In this document: positions 1,862-64,000 of the stretch, in pieces
How the letters are laid out: each line of letters opens with the position of its first letter
How positions within the stretch are numbered: the first letter of the stretch is position 1
From: Escherichia virus TH57
Reading direction: 5' to 3' (one strand)
Sequence record: MT446422.1
Length of the DNA stretch: 64,000 bases
Notes under the pieces: model-generated
The model's input: the letters and a program-made list of their open reading frames with translations, nothing else
The model's database searches: none
What the model was told of the DNA's origin: nothing
Position numbers and translations under genes: made by a program

Positions 1862-2610
1862 TTTTTCAAGTCCTTCTCAACTAACGATAAAGCAATACCT
1901 CGTTCGATAGGAATCATATGCATGATGCTATCCAGCGAATATTGATTCTTTACCAGCAAGTGGTTAATTTGGTAAAATACAAAGACTTCATCCGGGTTAA
2001 GGATAAGCTTAAAGACGTCAAGCAGGTCGGTGTATTCGGTTTTGTGTTTTTCGCAGCAACCATATGTAAATGGAATATAAACTGAATGCATTTTCTTAAG
2101 GAGCTCTTCGAGACTCTCTATATCAATTGCGTCAATAACCTGCATCTTCGTTTCTTCAGGAAGGTCTTCCCAATTGTATTTTTGTTCTGAGTCTTCGACA
2201 GTCTGGATGGTGTTTAGAACAAGCTCCGACTTATCTTTATATTCCACTTCGGGGAACTTAAATTGTATTTTTATCCCCGCGGTTTCCATTGTTGGATTTG
2301 TCAATGGGCCTTGGCTCATATTAAACAAAGTCTGCTTTGTCTTTTTACATTTTTGACATTCGAACGCTACCGGGACTTTTGTCTTACCGATAGAGGAAGT
2401 GAATACCTTCAAGAATATGTATGGCCTCCATGCTTTCGGATACTCTCCAAAATAATCTTCCAACAGTTCGTCTAATAATTGTTTTTGTTCTTCGACGGGT
2501 TTGTTGTTCATGTCGTTTCGCACAAGCAGTAAATCACGGTAATCAGCGACTGTAAACGGTTTGAAACGATGAACTCCGTCTGGCATTTCGCATCTTACGA
2601 TATTGGCCAT
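1858..2610 (-). CDS. 51: baseplate hub assembly catalyst gp51
   Basis: 250 aa ORF immediately upstream of gp27, same size and position as T4 gp51. Confidence 0.7.
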
Positions 2611-2663
2611 AGAATCCCCTTTTATCTTTATTGATATTTATAAATACAGTAAAGGAGCAAATT

Positions 2664-3287
2664 ATGACTTATGAATTTATTGTCCAAATTAAAAATAAAA
2701 CTATAAATTGTAGGGCTTTTACCTTGCGCGAATACAAAGATTTGCTTCAGGCAAAATTAGAAAAGCGTATGGAACCTGCAATAATTGAACTGCTTAATAA
2801 ATGCACTGATGCTAAAGGGTTAAACAAACAGGAAGCCGAGCTGCTTCTTATTAATCTCTGGGCAAATAGCCTCGGAGCTGTTAACGTCGAGCATACATGG
2901 GTATGTGAGTGCGGAAAGGAACAAGATATTCCTGTGACTATAAGTCGTGCAAGCATCGTGGATGAGTCTGAAGTTATTCGTGATTTCGGGGCATTTAAAA
3001 TTAAATTTCGTTATCCTGGACTGTTTGAAGACGGTGATAAAGGAAAAATGATTGCTTGTTGTATTGAATATATTATCACGGAAGGCGGTGAGCGCATCGT
3101 TGTTGATGACTTAAATGAAGCCGAAATCGAGGACCTGTACAATGCAATTACCCTCGATGATATAAATGCACTAACGGAAGAACTTCTCAAGCCACAGGTC
3201 CAAATGGCTATTCCTATCTCTTGCGAGTGTGGAGCGCATTCTGTCCATGTAATTAAGGGGCTTAAAGAATTCTTTAAGTTTATGTAA
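2664..3287 (+). CDS. 26: baseplate hub subunit gp26
   Basis: ATG at 2664 preceded by AAGGAG; about 207 aa; position between 51 and 25 as in T4. Confidence 0.7.
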   Translation: MTYEFIVQIKNKTINCRAFTLREYKDLLQAKLEKRMEPAIIELLNKCTDAKGLNKQEAELLLINLWANSLGAVNVEHTWVCECGKEQDIPVTISRASIVDESEVIRDFGAFKIKFRYPGLFEDGDKGKMIACCIEYIITEGGERIVVDDLNEAEIEDLYNAITLDDINALTEELLKPQVQMAIPISCECGAHSVHVIKGLKEFFKFM

Positions 3288-3677
3288 ATGAATATAAACA
3301 AAATGTATAGCGATGTGTCTCCTGACTTGTCAATGAGTTGGGATAAAGACGTTGCTAAAGTAACCGGTGCAAGGTCTGTTAAGAACAGTCTTCTGGGTAT
3401 AATCACCACAAGAAAAGGGTCAAGGCCTTTTATGCCTGAATTTGGATGTGATATAAGTAATCAGCTTTTTGAGAATATCACACCATTAATCACAGATACC
3501 ATTAAACGCAACATCGTCTCCGCGGTGCGGAACTTCGAACCAAGGATAAGCAATTTACAGGTTGCAGTTGTCCCTATGTATGATGATAACTCCATTATCG
3601 TAACGGTTCAGTTTAGCATTGTTGATGACCCTGACACCCTCGAACAAATCAGGATTCAGTTAAGTCAAAACGGTTAA
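3288..3677 (+). CDS. 25: baseplate wedge subunit gp25 (gpW/lysozyme-like fold)
   Basis: 129 aa; MNINKMYSDVSPD...SLLGIITTRKGSRPF.PEFGCD matches remembered T4 gp25. Confidence 0.9.
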   Translation: MNINKMYSDVSPDLSMSWDKDVAKVTGARSVKNSLLGIITTRKGSRPFMPEFGCDISNQLFENITPLITDTIKRNIVSAVRNFEPRISNLQVAVVPMYDDNSIIVTVQFSIVDDPDTLEQIRIQLSQNG

Positions 3678-3730
3678 TGCTTTAATTTTATGGCTGTATA
3701 ATGGTTCTAGACCCTTACATTGGATACATT

Positions 3731-4165
3731 ATGAAAACAGAGATTGAATATAAGTTAGAAGTCTTTCAGGATGAGTTAGATGCAGATTTAAAAATTGATG
3801 GTACTCAACTTCAATATGAAACACAAAACAACGTTTTGTTGCATAGCAAATGGTTGAGATTGTATACCAACTGCAAGAAAGAAATAATGCGTCTTGAGAT
3901 TCAGAAGAAAACTGCACTGAAAAAACGGCTAGACCATTATACAGGAAGGGGTGACCCAGGGGAAGAAGTATGCATGGATGTATACGAGAAGTCAGAATTG
4001 AAAACAGTCATGGCCGCAGATTCAAACATACTGAAGATTGATACTTCAATTCAGTATTGGGCACTACTCCAGGACTTCTGTAGCGCTGCATTAGATGGTG
4101 TTAAGTCACGAAGTTTCGCACTTAAACATATGTTAGAAATAAGACAATTCGAGGCAGGCAAGTAA
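3731..4165 (+). CDS. uvsY: recombination mediator UvsY
   Basis: KIDGTQLQYETQNNVLLHSKWL...IQYWALLQDFCSAALDGVKSRSFALKHM matches remembered T4 UvsY; start taken at internal Met MKTEIEYK; MotA-box middle promoter upstream. Confidence 0.9.
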   Translation: MKTEIEYKLEVFQDELDADLKIDGTQLQYETQNNVLLHSKWLRLYTNCKKEIMRLEIQKKTALKKRLDHYTGRGDPGEEVCMDVYEKSELKTVMAADSNILKIDTSIQYWALLQDFCSAALDGVKSRSFALKHMLEIRQFEAGK

Positions 4166-4398
4166 TGCGATATTCTATCGACGATGCGTTTAACCAAGAC
4201 GAAGAGTTCGAAGAAGAAATTAAGTATATGATGAAGGAATGGAAATTGAATCGCGCAGATATTCGTATCTGCGCTGACCACCCTTGTGGTGAAGATGTTA
4301 TCTATGTTAAAGGTAAATTTGCAGGATACATCGATGATGCGTTCTATTCTCACAATATGGGGATAGATACCGGTATGAGATACTTTAAGGAAAATTAA
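4165..4398 (+). CDS. hypothetical protein (position of T4 uvsY.-2)
   Basis: 77 aa ORF overlapping uvsY stop (ATGA junction). Confidence 0.5.
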   Translation: MRYSIDDAFNQDEEFEEEIKYMMKEWKLNRADIRICADHPCGEDVIYVKGKFAGYIDDAFYSHNMGIDTGMRYFKEN

Positions 4399-4509
4399 AT
4401 GAAAAATATTAGTAAGATTCTCGACGAGATGGTTATCTCTGCAAACCGAATAACTGAAATTGTTAATGAGATGAAAGCTCGTGCTGCTATTATGAAGAGC
4501 ACTAAATAG
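4399..4509 (+). CDS. hypothetical small protein (36 aa)
   Basis: ATG immediately after preceding stop; MKNISKILDEMVISANRITEIVNEMKARAAIMKSTK; below ORF-track size cutoff. Confidence 0.3.
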   Translation: MKNISKILDEMVISANRITEIVNEMKARAAIMKSTK

Positions 4510-4537
4510 ATATGTAAGTTTAACTGAGGAGACAATC

Positions 4538-4705
4538 ATGTCAGATAAGATTTGTGTTGTCTGTAAAACTCCAATCGATTCTGCATTGGTTGTGGATACA
4601 GACCAAGGTCCGGTGCATCCGGGCGCCTGTTATAATTATGTTCAGAGTTTGCCAGTTACGGAAAATACAGAAGAGCAACTGAACGAGACCCAACTTTTAA
4701 TTTAG
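4538..4705 (+). CDS. hypothetical small Cys-containing protein (55 aa)
   Basis: GAGGAG 7 nt upstream of ATG; MSDKICVVCKTPIDS...; followed by hairpin terminator. Confidence 0.4.
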   Translation: MSDKICVVCKTPIDSALVVDTDQGPVHPGACYNYVQSLPVTENTEEQLNETQLLI

Positions 4706-4730
4706 CTAGTGTTGTTAACCATTTTTGGTT

Positions 4731-4762
4731 TTGCCCCTTCCTTTTGGTTGGGGCCTTTTTAT
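4731..4762 (+). terminator. rho-independent terminator (GCCCC..GGGGC hairpin + T-run)
   Basis: gccccttccttttggttggggcc followed by tttttattt, at the convergence of the plus uvsY cluster and minus uvsW.1. Confidence 0.55.
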
Positions 4763-4990
4763 TTAGAAATCTTCGTCTTCGTCGTCGTCCATATCCTCAA
4801 GCTCGGCGCGTTTACCGGCAAGAGCATCACGAACACTGATATCATCGGAATCTTTTAGTTCAGCTTCTTTGCTGCGTTTTTTATAATAGCCTTCCAACTC
4901 CTTCAGACCGTCCATGGTCTGACAGGAACCAATCTTAGCCATAAAGCCTTCAATTGATGCTTCGTACATAATTTCTTCAAAGGATTTCAT
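4763..4990 (-). CDS. uvsW.1: UvsW.1 small acidic protein
   Basis: 75 aa ORF immediately downstream of uvsW, acidic C-terminus, same arrangement as T4. Confidence 0.7.
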   Translation of the reverse strand: MKSFEEIMYEASIEGFMAKIGSCQTMDGLKELEGYYKKRSKEAELKDSDDISVRDALAGKRAELEDMDDDEDEDF

Positions 4991-57357: not shown

Positions 57358-57590
57358 GTATTGCAATTTATATTAAATCAGAGTCGTGTGATTCTTATCT
57401 GTATTCCTATGACACTGGAACATCAGAAGAGAAAATCAAAGATGATTTAGAAACCGACTTGGATATGTTCCGACCTATTTCTGAATACAGAATTCAAATT
57501 TCTGATAGTGAATCCCCTTCATTGGAAAATAGACTTGAATTTTTAATGAGTGATATTTTTAACCAATCCTGGGAACGTGACGATGAGTAA
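57354..57590 (+). CDS. hypothetical small acidic protein
   Basis: 78 aa. Confidence 0.45.
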   Translation: MSIAIYIKSESCDSYLYSYDTGTSEEKIKDDLETDLDMFRPISEYRIQISDSESPSLENRLEFLMSDIFNQSWERDDE

Positions 57591-58041
57591 GAAAAACAAG
57601 GTGAAAGAATTATCTGCTGGCATTATTTTCATGACTGAAGATAAAGAGTTATTCATGGGTCGTGTGACCGGTTCTCGTAAACCAGGTATGCCTGCACACA
57701 AATGGGACATCCCTAAGGGTCATGTTGAAGCTGATGAATCCCCGATTGAAGCTGCTATCCGTGAAACTGAAGAAGAAACTGGGTTTACCCAATATGACCC
57801 AGCATTCTTAAAGGACCTGGGTGAATTTCGTTATTCAGATAATAAAAACCTTCACCTGTTTTTGTACACGGTTCCGGTCGAGCATGAGCAGTTCAGACAT
57901 AGTAAATGCTCTGCCTATCATACCTTCCCGGATGGTAGTTCAGTCCCCGAGTTTGATGCATTTGCTCTGATTAAACCGAGCCAATGGCAATACGTAATGG
58001 GTAAATCGATGTACAAGGTAATGACTCAAATTTTCGGATAA
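57583..58041 (+). CDS. nudE: Nudix hydrolase NudE
   Basis: Nudix box GHVEADESPIEAAIRETEEETGF; about 152 aa; adjacent to lysozyme as T4 e.1. Confidence 0.85.
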   Translation: MSKKNKVKELSAGIIFMTEDKELFMGRVTGSRKPGMPAHKWDIPKGHVEADESPIEAAIRETEEETGFTQYDPAFLKDLGEFRYSDNKNLHLFLYTVPVEHEQFRHSKCSAYHTFPDGSSVPEFDAFALIKPSQWQYVMGKSMYKVMTQIFG

Positions 58042-58068: not shown

Positions 58069-58560
58069 ATGAATATATTCGAAATGTTACGCATAGATGA
58101 AGGTTGTAAGTTGGATTTGTACCGTGACACCGAAGGCTTTTGGACCATCGGCATCGGTCAATTGATAACTAAGAACCCATCGAAAGACGTTGCTCGCGCT
58201 GAGCTGGACAAATTAATGGGTCGTGTTTGCAACGGTAGGATTACCCAGATTGAAGCTGAAACCTTGTTTAACCGTTCAGTGGAAAAAGCTAAAGCCGGAA
58301 TCTTGAAACATCCTGTCTTAAAACCTGTTTATGATGTACTGGATGAAGTTCGTCGTTGCGCACTCATTAATATGGTATTCCAAATGGGTGTAGCTGGTGT
58401 AGCTGGTTTTCCTAAGGGGCTGCGATTGCTCAAGGCTAAATCATGGGAAGCTGCTGCTAAGGAACTGGCTGACTCAAGATGGTATAAAGTCCAGACTCCG
58501 AACCGGGCCAAACGAGTTATTGAAACTTTCCGTACTGGAACTTTTGACGCATACAAATGA
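58069..58560 (+). CDS. e: endolysin (T4 lysozyme, gene e)
   Basis: 163 aa; [12 protein letters not shown]...DTEG..TIGIG...[13 protein letters not shown]...NRAKRVI.TFRTGT.DAYK matches T4 lysozyme with Glu11, Asp20, Thr26. Confidence 0.95.
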
Positions 58561-58616: not shown

Positions 58617-59033
58617 ATGACTCGCATTAATTTAACCCTGGTATCTGAACTCGCTGACCAACATCTTATGGCTGAATATCGTGAACTTCCTCGCGTGTTT
58701 GGTGCTGTTCGTAAGCATGTGCAAAATGGTAAAAAGGTGTCTGACTTTAAAATCCCATCATCTTTTCTTTTAGGGACTGGCCATGTCACCTTCTTTTATG
58801 ATAAGCTTTTGTTCCTTAAAAACAGGCATCAAGAACTTATTGCGGAATGTTTAAAGCGAGGGTTTAACATAAAAGATATTTCTACCCAAGATTTAAATGA
58901 TATTCCTGATGAATGGAAGAATGATTATCAACCATCAATCTGGTCAATTGAAATCAGTCAAGCCAGACTGAATGAGAAAATTTCTCAAAAGCCTACCTGG
59001 TACAAATACTATGGGAAAGCTGTGTACGCTTAA
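58617..59033 (+). CDS. denV: endonuclease V (pyrimidine dimer DNA glycosylase/AP lyase, DenV)
   Basis: 138 aa; [35 protein letters not shown] matches remembered T4 DenV. Confidence 0.95.
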
Positions 59034-59081
59034 CTAAAAAGGTTGTATAATGATTTTATCAACCAAACAATGGAATATAAA

Positions 59082-59396
59082 ATGAAAACTTATCAAGAAT
59101 TTATTACTGAATCTACCCAAAAACGTGTTGAAGGCGGTTATGTCTGGATTGAACAATTAACCCCACCAAGTGAAACGAGCACGGGTTCGTGGAAAATTAC
59201 TGTTGATGGCCCTGGTGGAAAACGTAAGACTATTAAAGAAATTAAAGGCTATTATGATGAAGCCAAATCATGGGCTGGTAGTCATGTAATGCAGATTAAA
59301 ATTGCAAACCCGGATAACGTTCATGCGGCAAAAGCATTCCGTCGCATTGGTAATAAACTTTATGATGCGTTTTTGCGTGATTTCCCTAAAGAGTAA
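59082..59396 (+). CDS. internal head protein-like protein (CTS-bearing)
   Basis: N-terminus MKTYQEFITE from ATG at 59082. Confidence 0.65.
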   Translation: MKTYQEFITESTQKRVEGGYVWIEQLTPPSETSTGSWKITVDGPGGKRKTIKEIKGYYDEAKSWAGSHVMQIKIANPDNVHAAKAFRRIGNKLYDAFLRDFPKE

Positions 59397-59409
59397 TTAA
59401 AGAGACATT

Positions 59410-59673
59410 ATGAAAACTTATCAAGAATTTATTACTGAATCTGCTAAAGCTCCTACCGGTGCTTTTAAAGTCCGCGCCTTCGCTGGTGATGCTGAAGACT
59501 TTGGCACCATGAAGCGCAATGGTTATTCTTTCTTTGGTGGCGATGGTAAAGAAATTGTTACCTATGCAAAACGCCGCGAAATCGCATTCGTGGTTGCTGG
59601 TAAGAAAGTTGATGTTGACGATATTGAATGGGATTTTGATACCTTTGGTATTGTTTCTGGCGGTAAAGCATAA
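59410..59673 (+). CDS. internal head protein-like protein (CTS-bearing)
   Basis: N-terminus MKTYQEFITE; paralog of 46381..46680. Confidence 0.7.
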   Translation: MKTYQEFITESAKAPTGAFKVRAFAGDAEDFGTMKRNGYSFFGGDGKEIVTYAKRREIAFVVAGKKVDVDDIEWDFDTFGIVSGGKA

Positions 59674-59675
59674 CT

Positions 59676-59704
59676 GTTTACTTTATGATGGGATAGTGTA
59701 TAAT
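59676..59704 (+). promoter_or_regulatory. sigma70-type early promoter (best match in window)
   Basis: GTTTAC, 17-nt spacer, TATAAT; -10 inside GGGATA/TATCCC inverted repeat; conserved leader. Confidence 0.65.
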
Positions 59705-59729
59705 TATCCCATCAACTTGGAGCGAATAA

Positions 59730-60029
59730 ATGAAAACTTATCAAGAATTTATTACTGAAGCCAAAGCTCCTAAAGCATTTCAAATTGGGGTTCAGGGTAA
59801 TTTAGACCAACAATACGTTGATGCTATTGTAGCAAGCCTCGGCAAGCAGGGTGTACAAGTGGATTTGGTTGATTTTACTAAAGGTAATACTTTTAATATT
59901 GTCACATCTAAAGGTTCTTTAGCTAAAGTTAAAAAGGCCTTTGGCGTAGCACAAGCATATGAAATCGACCATTCCGAATTGGAAAATAAAGGTCGCCAGA
60001 ACACAATTAAAGGCTCTGGTTCTTTCTAA
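59730..60029 (+). CDS. internal head protein-like protein (CTS-bearing)
   Basis: N-terminus MKTYQEFITE. Confidence 0.7.
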   Translation: MKTYQEFITEAKAPKAFQIGVQGNLDQQYVDAIVASLGKQGVQVDLVDFTKGNTFNIVTSKGSLAKVKKAFGVAQAYEIDHSELENKGRQNTIKGSGSF

Positions 60030-60190
60030 TAAAGGCAAGCCGGCCCTCTCCTCATGAACGTCGCGTCCTCTGAGTGATGGACCTTTCCCTACCTGTAATA
60101 AGGTCGAGCCCGAGTGCGGTAAGGGGTTTACATTCGGATACATGGACGAATTAATGTGCCAAGGAATGGCCCTACAACTAAGAGACAACT

Positions 60191-60718
60191 ATGAAATTTT
60201 TAACTCCAATTTATCTAACCTTAATGCACGCCTTCGCTGAACGCGCCATTGAACGCTTAGATTCAGACCAATACACCTGGTATGAACCCGCTTCAAGAAT
60301 GCAAGAGTTTGGTACTCTTCGACTTGATGGTGGTCGTCAAACAGGTAAAACAAGTGCCCTTGCACAGTTCGCTGCGGATTGGGTTTCCAAGGGTAATGAT
60401 GTGATTGTTATGTCGAGTTCTTCACATCGCTCCCGAGAAATCTGTGATATAATAAAGCGGGTTTCTAAGGCGCAACCACATCTTAATGTTGAGCGACCTG
60501 GTTTTGTTGTATATGATACTGTTCGTTCATTTTTAGACGAAGATAATTTCCATAAGTACCGTGGATTGCGTTTTACGCGTCTTTTAATCATTATTGAAGA
60601 ACCTATTCGCCTCCCTACAATGGATAAGTTCTATGAAGCTTATCAGGTAATGATGAATAAATTTATGTGTCAAGGTGATAAGCCTTTGCCGTTATTCTTT
60701 GTGATAGGAATGCAATAA
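60191..60718 (+). CDS. hypothetical P-loop NTPase-like protein
   Basis: 175 aa; Walker A-like GGRQTGKTS and hydrophobic strand + acidic residues (LLIIIEEP) consistent with Walker B. Confidence 0.5.
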   Translation: MKFLTPIYLTLMHAFAERAIERLDSDQYTWYEPASRMQEFGTLRLDGGRQTGKTSALAQFAADWVSKGNDVIVMSSSSHRSREICDIIKRVSKAQPHLNVERPGFVVYDTVRSFLDEDNFHKYRGLRFTRLLIIIEEPIRLPTMDKFYEAYQVMMNKFMCQGDKPLPLFFVIGMQ

Positions 60719-61014
60719 TGACTCATGAAGAGCTTTTTGACCAAATCTATTTTATTCCAAAGGTTAGGTCTGAAGATTTCGTAAAGAATTTTGAAATCTT
60801 TAATAAAGCAAATTTCTTTGAGTACGTGTTTTTGTCTGGACCTTTTATTGGGTCCAGATTTCGTTGCACTGCTCCGAGTATTCGCTTAATGAAGCTGGTT
60901 CCTTACTTTACTCTGGAATTTATTTCTGGACCATGTAAGGGTATTATAACTCGTAGCCTCCTGACATATGACCAGGATGTGCGATTAATTAGTGACTGGA
61001 AAAAATATGTCTAA
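60718..61014 (+). CDS. hypothetical protein
   Basis: 98 aa, ATGA overlap with upstream gene. Confidence 0.5.
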   Translation: MTHEELFDQIYFIPKVRSEDFVKNFEIFNKANFFEYVFLSGPFIGSRFRCTAPSIRLMKLVPYFTLEFISGPCKGIITRSLLTYDQDVRLISDWKKYV

Positions 61015-61221
61015 ATTGACTATTGAAGGTTCTGAAGAAGCTCTGAAGATGTTTGTTGACTGGTTCCACGGTCAAGGCGAACAGGACTTTATGGAATGTT
61101 GGGACGGTGGCCAATGGAACGGTAAAGAAATTGTTTATCCGAGCACATATATCTCTGTTCGCGGCGGATATGATGGCCTTCGTTTGGTAGAATATGATAT
61201 TGCATCTGATGAGGAAGTGAA

Positions 61222-61225
<4 letters not shown>
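61007..61225 (+). CDS. hypothetical protein
   Basis: 72 aa from ATG at 61007. Confidence 0.45.
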
Positions 61226-61804
<579 letters not shown>

Positions 61805-61805
<1 letters not shown>

Positions 61806-61833
61806 TGTACAAGCAGATTGAAATGAGTTATGA
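61805..61833 (+). promoter_or_regulatory. early promoter cassette
   Basis: gtgtac, 17-nt spacer, ttatga, leader ttatcccatcaa. Confidence 0.4.
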
Positions 61834-61860
61834 TTATCCCATCAAACAAAAGGAGATAAT

Positions 61861-62320
61861 CATGACTACTATCGATTCAAGTGTTTACATTCGCCGCAAT
61901 AAACTTCGTCGCATTTTTGAAACGGAGTTCCTCAAAATTAATAATGCTATCAACAAGGCTTGTAAAGAAGCAGGTCTTGAAGCATTCTTCATTAAGTACA
62001 GTCCGCACCTGTTGGACCGTGCAATCCAACGTGAAATTGACGAACAATATGTTTTTGACTTGTTTGGAAAAATCACACCACATGTAAAAGAAATCGTTGA
62101 ATTCTTGGAGATGAAACCACTCCCGGAAGTTGAAGCACAAATTGACCCGAATGTGAACTACCGTCCACTTCGTCTGGAAATCACAGACAAGAACCTGTGG
62201 TTAGGAATGACAGTTAACCCCGCTATTCCTGGGAAGTCTCCAACCATGTGTTGCCGTATGGCGTTTGTTAACTCTAATCGTCTGGAAGGAAAAATTAGCA
62301 CAAAAGTGATTTATATCTAA
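61861..62320 (+). CDS. regB: RegB site-specific endoribonuclease
   Basis: 153 aa; VYIRRNKLRR.FETEF..INN...KYS.HLLDRAIQREIDE.YVF.LF...RPLRLEITD.NLWLG matches remembered T4 RegB. Confidence 0.9.
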
Positions 62321-62330
62321 TGGGGAATTC

Positions 62331-62873
62331 ATGAAAAAAGTAATCGCCACCTTACTATTGACAGTTAGTATGTCTGCCCATAGCGTAGAGCCTACTTTCA
62401 GTAATGAACAAATGGAGAATCTCCAATATGCTTATGCATTTGGAGAACAGTTCCAGAAAAATGGTAAGTACAAAGAAAATCCGCACCAACATAATGGTTT
62501 GGGATATATCATGGCTGGTTTAACCTGGCAGGAAAGTTCTGCTGGCGTTAATACAGGATTAAATAAAGATAAGCATCATGCATATGGTATATTCCAAAAT
62601 TATCTTCCAACCGTGCGCGAGCGCGTAAAACAGGTTGGGTGGACAATGACAGATAAAGAAATAATCAAGATGATAAGCAAGAGAGAGAACAGTGCACGCT
62701 GGGCTTATATTGAGCTTTCATACTGGTTGAATATTCATAAGGGGGATATAAGAAAAACGCTATCATCATATAACGCAGGGTGGAATGTGAAAGCTGGAAA
62801 TACGTATGCTTCACAGGTTCTAGAAAAAGCTAACTACTTAAAATCACGAGGCCTATTAAAAACGGTGGATTAA
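62331..62873 (+). CDS. secreted protein with N-terminal signal peptide (possible lytic transglycosylase-like)
   Basis: 180 aa; signal peptide MKKVIATLLLTVSMSAHS; enzymatic assignment is speculative. Confidence 0.5.
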   Translation: MKKVIATLLLTVSMSAHSVEPTFSNEQMENLQYAYAFGEQFQKNGKYKENPHQHNGLGYIMAGLTWQESSAGVNTGLNKDKHHAYGIFQNYLPTVRERVKQVGWTMTDKEIIKMISKRENSARWAYIELSYWLNIHKGDIRKTLSSYNAGWNVKAGNTYASQVLEKANYLKSRGLLKTVD

Positions 62874-62875
62874 AA

Positions 62876-63235
62876 ATGGTAAGAGTTATCACTTTAGCCA
62901 TAGGGTTAGTATTCAGCATGGGAGGAATAGCTTCAGTACAGAGCGACGACAACAACAGCATCGTAGAATATGCAACGAGGACGGCTAAAGATTATTGCGC
63001 ATCAAGCAATGTGGATTGTGTAATCCGGTTCAGTGCCAAGCTCACAGCAGCCTATAAAGATGGTCAAAATGATGTTGAACATACGCTTTTGAAAAAGAAT
63101 GTATTATCCAACAAATATGAAAAGAAATTATTTGAAATGGATTGCATTCTATCAAGTGCAAAATATAAAGCGGCCTGCACCAGTATGGTTGACAGGTTAG
63201 TGGATTCATATAATAGAGGATTGAACTCTAAATGA
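62876..63235 (+). CDS. secreted/periplasmic hypothetical protein
   Basis: 119 aa; signal peptide MVRVITLAIGLVFSMGGIASV; four Cys. Confidence 0.5.
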   Translation: MVRVITLAIGLVFSMGGIASVQSDDNNSIVEYATRTAKDYCASSNVDCVIRFSAKLTAAYKDGQNDVEHTLLKKNVLSNKYEKKLFEMDCILSSAKYKAACTSMVDRLVDSYNRGLNSK

Positions 63236-63705
63236 TTACCCAGTATATTAAGGGCGATATCGTCGCCCTCTTTCTTCAAGGCAATATTATTGCGCATGGT
63301 TGCAACTGCTTTCACACAATGGGTTCTGGCGTAGCTGGACAGTTGGCGAAGGCTTATCCAAAAGTTTTAGAAATAGATAAAACCACTACTGAATATGGTT
63401 CTCGTAATAAATTAGGCGATATGTCTATCGTTTTTAAACATAATCCAACTGGATTTGGTATGTGCTATAATTTGTATACGCAATACGAACCAGGCCCTAA
63501 TCTTGATTATGGTGCTTTAGTAAATTGTATGATAGAATTAAATCTACAAGCAGAAACCCTTTTGTTTAAACCTGTAATTTATATTCCTCGTATTGGTTGT
63601 GGTATTGCAGGTGGAGATTGGGAAAAGGTTTCTAAATTAATCGACATGTTTACTCCTGACATTGATTTGATAGTGGTGGATTATGAGCCAAGTCCGAATT
63701 CTTAA
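63232..63705 (+). CDS. macro domain protein (putative ADP-ribose binding / hydrolase)
   Basis: 157 aa; IAHGCNCFHTMGSGVAGQLAKAYP resembles the macro-domain N-terminal signature (h.h.vNc...MGaGiA). Confidence 0.55.
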   Translation: MITQYIKGDIVALFLQGNIIAHGCNCFHTMGSGVAGQLAKAYPKVLEIDKTTTEYGSRNKLGDMSIVFKHNPTGFGMCYNLYTQYEPGPNLDYGALVNCMIELNLQAETLLFKPVIYIPRIGCGIAGGDWEKVSKLIDMFTPDIDLIVVDYEPSPNS

Positions 63706-63889
63706 AACGGCCAAATGTGAAAAATGCGAATGGCCAGTAATCGCAGCTTTATGCAACGATGAAATGAATTGCGAATATGATTACTGGTGGTACTGTTCTA
63801 ATAAAGGATGTTCTAATCATAAGGGTGAAGGTTTTCATTCTGGTTATTGCGAACATCCTAAATTTGTGCGATATGGTGAACCGAAATGA
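63683..63889 (+). CDS. hypothetical Cys-rich zinc-ribbon-like small protein
   Basis: 68 aa with about 10 Cys/His in CxxC-type spacing; start uncertain. Confidence 0.4.
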   Translation: MSQVRILKTAKCEKCEWPVIAALCNDEMNCEYDYWWYCSNKGCSNHKGEGFHSGYCEHPKFVRYGEPK

Positions 63890-64000
63890 GTTTAAGCATT
63901 AGTCAGAAAAGTAGATTATTTGAGCTTATCCATGAGCTTTTGGATGAGCATACGGAAGCAAACGCCTTTTATGATGAATATGGCCCGATAGATGCCGACC
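63887..64000 (+). CDS. hypothetical protein, N-terminal part (runs off window end)
   Basis: ATG at 63887 overlapping upstream stop; MSLSISQKSRLFELIHELLDEHTEANAFYDEYGPIDAD... Confidence 0.4.

Follow-up and report, generated by a model that had tools for sequence, protein, structure and literature searches.

An orthologue of the T4 macrodomain protein Tk.4 (AdfM) in Escherichia virus TH57 and its likely role against DarTG2

The tk.4 gene and the fold of its product

We examined a 64,000-nucleotide stretch of Escherichia virus TH57 (sequence record MT446422.1), referred to below as the window, and within it an ATG-initiated open reading frame (ORF) at 63232..63705 on the + strand, which is the orthologue of gene tk.4 (adfM) of phage T4. 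Its product is 157 amino acids (aa) long and contains IAHGCNCFHTMGSGVAGQLAKAYP (ORF listing). An earlier reading of the window from the letters alone (the original prediction) had described a 157-aa macro-domain protein with this signature at 63232-63705 and had proposed a profile search and a structure prediction as checks; exactly this ORF was found. The gene and the elements that bear on its identity are listed below.

63232..63705, + strand: tk.4/adfM orthologue, a stand-alone 157-aa macrodomain protein of the ALC1/TARG1-like class (ORF, Pfam, identity to T4, AlphaFold2, Foldseek)
63232..63235, + strand: ATGA in which the tk.4 start codon and the vs stop codon overlap (read from the sequence)
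63295..63336, + strand: first substrate-binding loop, H22-G-C-N25 ... M30-G-S-G-V-A35, which holds the signature of the original prediction (alignment)
63481..63483, + strand: CAA codon of Gln84, which aligns where TARG1 (K84) and DarG (K80) have their catalytic Lys (profile alignment)
63586..63615, + strand: phosphate-binding loop P119-R-I-G-C-G-I-A-G-G128 (alignment)
63681..63686, + strand: junction of the tk.3 deletion, in a TTATGA that the start codons of tk.3 and of the gene after it have in common (blastn, DNA alignment)

The ORF is a real gene and not a chance frame, since it matches both the Macro family of Pfam (PF01661; E 1.4e-8; 35.1 bits against a gathering score of 22; residues 22-136 on profile positions 2-117/118) and PHROG 335 (E 6e-71), and since tblastn found relatives of its product in 2756 of 50,697 phage records. 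The profile search thus returned a macro-domain match above threshold.

Aligned with T4 Tk.4, the product shows 87 identities in 153 positions (57%), with 75% positives, 0 gaps and an E value of 1e-69; its identity to Tk.4 is 96% for SP18, 92% for RB3 and 56-57% for T4. The gene that follows vs is annotated as tk.4 in T4, RB3 and SP18, and the order regB, vs.1, vs, tk.4 is the same in the window. Because of this shared position after vs and the full-length similarity to T4 Tk.4, sequence comparison identifies the ORF as the tk.4 (adfM) orthologue. The 2.2 kb around it share 97% DNA identity with T-even phages of Escherichia, Shigella and Yersinia, such as Shigella phage SP18 (Gaprivervirus), and the window phage is a Gaprivervirus-like T-even.

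The original prediction treated the gene as an open lead. It is in fact already known, annotated and functionally assigned in the literature. Near-identical records name the product "phosphatase", "macro domain-containing protein" or Tk.4; PHROG 335 goes by the name 'phosphatase', and T4's RefSeq note has "contains A1pp phosphatase motif". Gene context was re-derived with PHROGs, leaving aside the deposited annotation of the closest relative, PP693301.1 (Yersinia phage vB_YenM_P8). Product names in that record are scrambled and unfit for annotation transfer: 'thioredoxin' occurs in consecutive runs, 'DNA ligase' is the name given to the vs.7 homologue and 'RegB-like RNA endonuclease' that given to the vs.4 homologue.

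A total of 754 homologues were found at E<=1e-5, and 65 of them, spanning 39-92% identity, were aligned. From this alignment, AlphaFold2 produced a model with an alternating beta/alpha pattern, a mean predicted local distance difference test (pLDDT) score of 94.9 and a predicted template-modelling (pTM) score of 0.90. Both glycine-rich loops of the macro fold are kept in the aligned sequences (G31-S-G-V-A35 and G122-C-G-I-A-G-G128). When the model was compared with the PDB by Foldseek, the leading matches were, in order, TARG1 (4J5R), BT1257 (2FG1), Poa1p (6LFR) and the DarG proteins of T. aquaticus (5M31) and M. tuberculosis (5M3I), with ALC1 later; all top matches had a probability of 1.00 and template-modelling (TM) scores of 0.69-0.78. 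Altogether, 174 PDB matches were recorded at E<=1e-3, the best 50 of which are macrodomains or designed hydrolases built on that scaffold. The predicted fold is therefore a confident macro fold whose best matches include ADP-ribose-bound structures of TARG1, Poa1p and DarG.

Sequence searches of the PDB gave a comparable ranking. With phmmer, the window protein matched BT1257 (5e-11), Poa1p (7.7e-10), SCO6735 (3.5e-7), DarG of M. tuberculosis (1.8e-5) and TARG1 (2e-3). The family profile matched BT1257 (1e-18), TARG1 (2e-17), SCO6735 (4e-15), Poa1p (4.4e-15), DarG (7.6e-12 and 1.9e-10) and the full-length Thermosipho DarTG chain (3.7e-7), with coronavirus and alphavirus macrodomains (nsP3/Mac1) at 3e-3 or weaker. 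By profile score, DarG is the most distant from the Tk.4 family among solved ALC1-like proteins. Given the ranking by sequence profile, with which the Foldseek ranking agrees, Tk.4 belongs to the ALC1/TARG1-like macrodomains and not to the MacroD/YmdB or viral Mac1 type.

Active-site residues

Residues G8, H22, G23, N25, C26, G33, A35, D49, N80, Y82, Q84, G88, P119, G122, G124 and W130 are invariant in the 65 sequences, and residues I121, I125, A126, G127 and G128 of the phosphate loop are nearly so. Five of the invariant residues, H22, N25, Q84, G122 and G124, correspond in the sequence alignment to His24, Asn27, Gln85, Gly126 and Gly128 of Streptomyces SCO6735, features that are shared with BT1257; in the SCO6735/BT1257 subclass, the Gln is positioned by the conserved Asn.

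At the catalytic position, '...lNlYtQ...' of the family profile lies opposite '...ANMIGQ...' of BT1257 ('MIGQHG') and '...YLITKK...' of TARG1. Q84 falls on the first Lys of the TARG1 'ITKK', chain residue 78, which is the catalytic K84 in native numbering. According to the SCO6735 paper, Gln85 corresponds structurally to TARG1 Lys84 and DarG Lys80, and both Q85A and Q85E abolish activity. Q84 is equated with SCO6735 Gln85 transitively, by way of the TARG1 and BT1257 alignments and the paper's statement, and not by a structural superposition; when residues 71-157 were used as a PDB query, HMMER aligned SCO6735 (5E3B) at the phosphate loop only (113-138) and not around Gln85.

The phosphate loop PRIGCGIAGG(D)W aligns to PRIGCGLAGGTW of SCO6735, PRIGCGLAGGKW of BT1257 and PRIGCGLDRLQW of TARG1. 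Its core is PRIGCGLAGG in both SCO6735 and BT1257 and PRIGCGLDRL in TARG1, so that the catalytic Asp125 of TARG1 corresponds to Ala126 in Tk.4. With an offset of 20 residues for the tag, Gly126 and Gly128 of SCO6735 are the two loop glycines that map to G122 and G124, which confirms the numbering used for SCO6735. H22 and N25 were mapped to His24 and Asn27 through the BT1257 alignment, and N25 also aligns with N23 of PhiKZ gp104. Mutants of SCO6735 at His24, Asn27, Gln85 and Gly128 each lost ADP-ribose (ADPr)-thymidine hydrolysis, H24Y and N27S being inactive, while Gly126 is reported solely as a diphosphate contact in simulations (SCO6735 paper).

Compared with the phage-family profile, BT1257 has 6 additional residues directly after the Gln. 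This extended loop is the "mobile loop" of the SCO6735 subclass, which exceeds its TARG1 and DarG counterparts by about 5 residues, bears Lys89 and Lys93 and is seen by the SCO6735 authors as a DNA clamp; in the alignment with BT1257, it is absent from the phage-family profile. The DarG models, in turn, recognise Tk.4 along their macro half only (positions 3-149 of 338), with 31.7 bits for NCBIfam NF048014, against an equivalog cut-off of 250, and 32.4 bits for the PADLOC DarG model. Since it lacks the mobile loop and is covered by just the macro half of the DarG models, the T-even Tk.4 family is best described from these alignments as a short-loop, Gln-type ALC1-like macrodomain, neither a DarG nor a full member of the SCO6735 subclass. 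What this adds is small: an invariant Gln at the position of the catalytic Lys, together with the retained His, Asn and Gly residues of SCO6735. The Gln-type site suggests a less understood, Lys-independent mechanism.

Probable anti-DarTG2 activity and its alternatives

When a T4 transposon library was screened on a host expressing DarTG2, "a single significant hit, tk.4" was obtained, and T4 with a clean tk.4 knockout became sensitive to DarTG2; the gene was named adfM, for anti-DarT factor Macrodomain (HIDEN-SEQ preprint, bioRxiv 10.1101/2025.11.20.689424). The idea in the original prediction that a phage macrodomain could reverse DarTG-type marks thus agrees with what is reported for the T4 orthologue. 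Removal of ADP-ribose from DNA by AdfM is called "likely" by the same authors, who inferred it and did not assay it (bioRxiv 10.1101/2025.11.20.689424).

Related proteins supply the enzymology. Thymidine-ADP-ribose hydrolysis has been demonstrated for SCO6735, DarG, TARG1 and PhiKZ gp104. SCO6735 shares 54% identity with BT1257; it hydrolyses the ADPr-thymidine that DarT makes and rescues cells from this toxin, and its authors regard reversal of thymidine-ADPr as a function that unites the ALC1-like class. PhiKZ gp104, independently named "AdfM", removes DarT2-made ADP-ribose from a TNTC oligonucleotide in vitro (Cell Rep 2026, PMC13309987), and its N23A mutation lowers this removal (PMC13309987). 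In T4, the NADAR protein AdfN (30.3) counters DarTG1 and not DarTG2.

The name 'AdfM' was given independently by two groups and covers two distinct macrodomain families, T4 Tk.4 and PhiKZ gp104. The two proteins share two short BLASTP stretches (E ~1e-3), and the family profile scores gp104 at 33 bits. An equivalence at the catalytic strand was considered and dropped, as the register was unreliable (Q84 lies opposite an Asn, with a Lys two residues off); only that of N25 with N23 is claimed. By their sequences, gp104 and T-even Tk.4 are independent families that share a name.

The mechanism that we infer begins upon infection, when host DarT2 would place ADP-ribose on thymidine in single-stranded DNA (ssDNA) and block phage replication. 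The phage macrodomain would bind this ADP-ribose in the cleft between the H22-N25/G31-A35 loop and the P119-G128 loop and hydrolyse the ribose-thymine bond, restoring replicable DNA. The chemistry would most likely be the Lys-independent, water- and substrate-assisted type proposed for SCO6735 and not the lysine mechanism of DarG and TARG1, because Gln84 replaces the Lys of DarG and TARG1, and Ala126 the Asp125 of TARG1. Because the protein has no DarT-binding domain, it would erase the mark only, without sequestering the toxin.

Thus, we read Tk.4 as an orphan antitoxin-like ADP-ribosylglycohydrolase, an eraser of the thymidine-ADPr that DarT2 makes on phage ssDNA, Lys-independent and protective against DarTG2, and put the probability of this reading at roughly two in three. 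On this reading, the T-even family would act as an enzyme on ADP-ribosyl-DNA, and the window allele, 57% identical to T4 Tk.4, would confer the same anti-DarTG2 phenotype.

Several points keep the estimate from being higher. For T-even Tk.4 proteins, hydrolase activity is a proposal of the preprint and not the result of an assay; the tested T4 protein and the window allele are unlike at 43% of positions, and the latter could have another specificity; and the T4 phenotype is documented in a preprint. Neither the catalytic Lys of DarG and TARG1 nor the long Lys-bearing mobile loop that the SCO6735 authors tie to efficient DNA binding is present in the family. The transitive nature of the match between Q84 and Gln85 weighs on the same side, as does the presence of Poa1p, a small-molecule ADP-ribose-1''-phosphate phosphatase, among the closest solved relatives.

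This last point raises the possibility that Tk.4 is an ADP-ribose-1''-phosphate (Appr-1''-p) phosphatase like yeast Poa1p, clearing the by-product of a KptA/Tpt1-type RNA 2'-phosphotransferase. We consider such a role unlikely. It would agree with the historical 'A1pp phosphatase' label, as found in the T4 motif note and the PHROG 335 name, and Poa1p is among the best matches by phmmer, by profile and by Foldseek (TM 0.78). In addition, Poa1p His23 aligns with the invariant H22 and Ser30 with T29, by a hand count that assumes a 3-residue N-terminal tag on 6lfu; these are the residues mutated in entries 6LFS and 6LFT. However, the pairwise match to Poa1p mainly spans residues 4-78, and the His is common to the whole ALC1-like class (TARG1, BT1257, SCO6735) and does not discriminate for Poa1p. 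The label is a domain-name carry-over and not the outcome of an assay, and the sole reported genetic phenotype of the orthologue, DarTG2 sensitivity, speaks against a Poa1p-like role.

Equally improbable, in our estimate, is that Tk.4 acts on soluble ADPr-derived signals or toxins and not on macromolecules, degrading or sequestering cyclic ADPR variants of TIR/Thoeris systems, O-acetyl-ADP-ribose or the ADPr-1''-P of RES proteins. Macro domains occur in 41% of myoviruses according to a comparative-genomics survey, and a role of this kind has been proposed for phage Macro domains generally; a NudE-homologue Nudix hydrolase is also encoded 5 kb upstream in the same early region. The proposal is nevertheless a hypothesis, the T4 screen tied tk.4 specifically to DarTG2, a DNA-modifying system, and the nearest characterised relatives, SCO6735, TARG1 and DarG, act on macromolecular ADPr. 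A role on soluble signals and one against DarTG2 are not mutually exclusive and could coexist.

The original prediction had also suggested that the protein erases or reads the marks of the phage's own ADP-ribosyltransferases. We found no support for this, and consider it very unlikely that Tk.4 erases or tunes Alt/ModA/ModB ADP-ribosylation or ModB-type RNAylation, or reverses host RNA ADP-ribosylation by CmdTAC. T-even phages do encode three ADP-ribosyltransferases, and TARG1 and SCO6735 also de-modify proteins. However, the Alt and Mod enzymes modify arginine, and arginine-ADPr is cut by hydrolases of the ARH/DraG type and not by macrodomains. Within the window there is no alt or mod gene; Alt and ModA of T-even phages also appear in the HIDEN-SEQ preprint (bioRxiv 10.1101/2025.11.20.689424). 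CmdTAC strongly defends against wild-type T4, which carries tk.4, and Tk.4 therefore does not neutralise CmdT mRNA ADP-ribosylation.

Least probable of all is a non-catalytic ADP-ribose reader: Q84 and A126 do replace the catalytic Lys and the Asp125 of TARG1, but SCO6735 with the same Gln and Ala substitutions was the fastest of three enzymes tested on ADPr-DNA, and H22, N25 and Q84, strictly invariant throughout the family, are in keeping with an enzyme and not with a reader. A decayed or truncated DarG was ruled out as well, as the whole family is ~150-160 aa long with a complete macro fold and invariant residues of its own.

Genomic setting, allele exchange and known systems

The annotated neighbours of tk.4 are as follows.

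57550..58041, + strand: NudE-like Nudix hydrolase (PHROG 1185, E 2.8e-75)
58069..58560: lysozyme (PHROG/Pfam)
61805..62320, + strand: RegB (Pfam REGB_T4)
62331..62873, + strand: vs.1 homologue (PHROG/Pfam searches)
62876..63235, + strand: vs, valyl-tRNA synthetase modifier, the upstream neighbour and synteny anchor (PHROG 1256, E 2e-32)
63683..63889, + strand: Cys-rich 68-aa Phage_zn_bind protein, the downstream neighbour (Pfam PF23895, E 5e-29)

This arrangement agrees with the original prediction, which had placed the gene after two signal-peptide proteins and before a Cys-rich, zinc-ribbon-like ORF: the two ORFs upstream (vs.1 and vs) have hydrophobic N termini, and the Cys-rich ORF downstream is Phage_zn_bind (PF23895). 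The 3' end of the tk.4 ORF is overlapped by the next ORF over 23 nt. Given this overlap and that with the vs stop codon, tk.4 lies in a tightly packed + strand operon, and the ATGA overlap suggests translational coupling within it. The Phage_zn_bind ORF is given as context only. With vs and this ORF as its neighbours, the macrodomain ORF does not adjoin a darT gene.

The vs.1 homologue and vs begin with signal-peptide-like hydrophobic stretches (MKKVIATLLLTVSMSAHS... and MVRVITLAIGLVFSMGGIASV...), and the vs.1 homologue has a sub-threshold match to an SLT transglycosylase (E 0.024; 14.7 bits vs 21.3). In T4, vs is the gene most strongly depleted in minimal medium (HIDEN-SEQ, bioRxiv 10.1101/2025.11.20.689424). 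Further upstream, the lysozyme gene is followed by an internal head protein, then by homologues of vs.8, vs.7, vs.4 and vs.3 and then by RegB (PHROG/Pfam). The listed RegB ORF has a GTG start and encodes 171 aa, but the REGB_T4 match starts at residue 23 and the SP18 protein is shorter, so the true start is probably an internal ATG near 61862. The NudE-like gene lies ~5 kb upstream of tk.4 within the same early + strand block; speculatively, its product, of a type able to cleave ADP-ribose, could dispose of what the macrodomain releases. The first ORFs of the window look to us, by size and order, like a late baseplate/head region.

A scan of positions 59000-64000 gave 15 promoter-like sites, where 14.7 were expected, and was uninformative, so that no promoter was assigned. 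Terminator-like sites in the same interval numbered 5, compared with 3.7 +/- 2.2 in shuffled sequences. At 63251..63269 (+), within codons 7-13 (KGDIVAL) of tk.4, a GC-rich hairpin of 8 bp precedes a T-rich tract. It is probably due to chance, since the terminator-like count is no higher than in shuffles.

The gene tk.3, present in T4, RB3 and SP18, is missing from the window and also from Yersinia phage vB_YenM_P8, which aligns with the window at 97.1% without gaps. By blastn, window positions 61800-63686 correspond to 2501-4387 of the SP18 locus and positions 63681-63998 to 4591-4908; the deletion was delimited by comparing window 63681-63889 with SP18 locus 4384-4799. The ORF after tk.4 is accordingly not Tk.3 but the orthologue of SP18 gp111/RB3_114, with 99% identity to SP18 gp111 (protein alignment). 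Since tk.4 overlaps its downstream neighbour, the loss of tk.3 rewrote the C terminus of Tk.4, changing the last 5-8 codons (…DYEPSPNS vs …DYESTLPTSV). In the AlphaFold2 model, the altered tail is a low-confidence segment that is not part of the fold. A frameshift or sequencing error as the source of the odd C terminus (EPSPNS vs ESTLPTSV) was ruled out by the clean tk.3 deletion, with which vB_YenM_P8 agrees.

The tk.4 allele of the window is also found in Tequatrovirus RB3, where identity is 92% at the protein and 85.6% at the DNA level, as opposed to 57% for the T4 allele (spans compared: window 63161-63686, RB3 locus 2930-3455 and T4 locus 4423-4890). The adjacent vs.1 region of RB3 is merely 67.6% identical to the window. 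A close tk.4 beside a distant vs.1 region implies that recombination carries tk.4 from one T-even genus to another. The 90-95% identity band holds about 299 phage records. The gene looks like a recombining anti-defence cassette with two main allele types.

A broader proposal, which we put forward as doubtful, is that the T-even Tk.4 family represents a third, mechanistically distinct type of ALC1-like hydrolase, pairing an SCO6735-type, Lys-independent Gln site with a loop as short as in TARG1 and DarG, derived from orphan cellular macrodomains and not from DarG, its ~57%-identical alleles recombining between genera and differing in specificity. If this were true, alleles would differ by the DarT2 variant, or by the other nucleic-acid or protein ADPr linkages, on which they act, and the locus would be a diversifying anti-defence cassette. 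DarTG is a widespread anti-phage defence, and phage erasers decide host range, which is relevant to phage therapy against E. coli, Shigella and Yersinia. The tk.4 gene described here is a further copy of the T4 counter-defence. Its main value is correct annotation: the proper label is adfM/tk.4 anti-DarTG2 macrodomain, and not "phosphatase" or "hypothetical protein". What interest remains lies in how a short-loop macrodomain of the Gln type works biochemically and in specificity differences that may exist between alleles.

Among known systems, T4 Tk.4 (AdfM) itself shares the position after vs, the length, the single domain and all family-invariant residues (H22, N25, Q84, G122, G124). It differs from the window protein at 43% of residues and in the C-terminal tail, because of the tk.3 deletion, and the phenotype is known for the T4 allele. 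The other T-even anti-DarT factors, AdfN (30.3, NADAR) and AdfA (61.2), have folds unrelated to that of Tk.4. AdfN is likewise an orphan antitoxin-like eraser, but it acts on the guanine-ADPr made by DarT1, and neither gene lies in the window.

BT1257 and SCO6735 (PDB 2FG1 and 5E3B) resemble Tk.4 in the Gln at the catalytic position, the PRIGCG(L/I)AGG phosphate loop, the His and the Asn, and BT1257 is the best sequence match in the PDB. They are only ~28% identical to it, are cellular and not viral, and have their own mobile loop, 5-6 residues longer, with Lys89 and Lys93. Human TARG1/OARD1 (4J5R, 4J5S) is the best Foldseek match (E 4.7e-10; TM 0.73/0.81) and likewise has a short third loop, but it carries a Lys84/Asp125 dyad where Tk.4 has Gln84/Ala126.

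The DarG antitoxin of DarTG2 (5M31, 5M3E, 5M3I; NF048014) is a homologous macrodomain (Foldseek TM ~0.75), and the presumed substrate, ADPr-thymidine on ssDNA, is the same. Tk.4, however, is half as long, lacks the C-terminal DarT-binding domain, has Gln in place of Lys80 (DarG of T. aquaticus) and has no adjoining darT. PhiKZ gp104, finally, is also a stand-alone phage macrodomain that counters DarTG2 and has an important conserved Asn (N23; N25 in Tk.4). Unlike Tk.4, it is imported into the phage nucleus, is DarG2-like by description and has a Lys in 'FPTKDNW' near the catalytic position.

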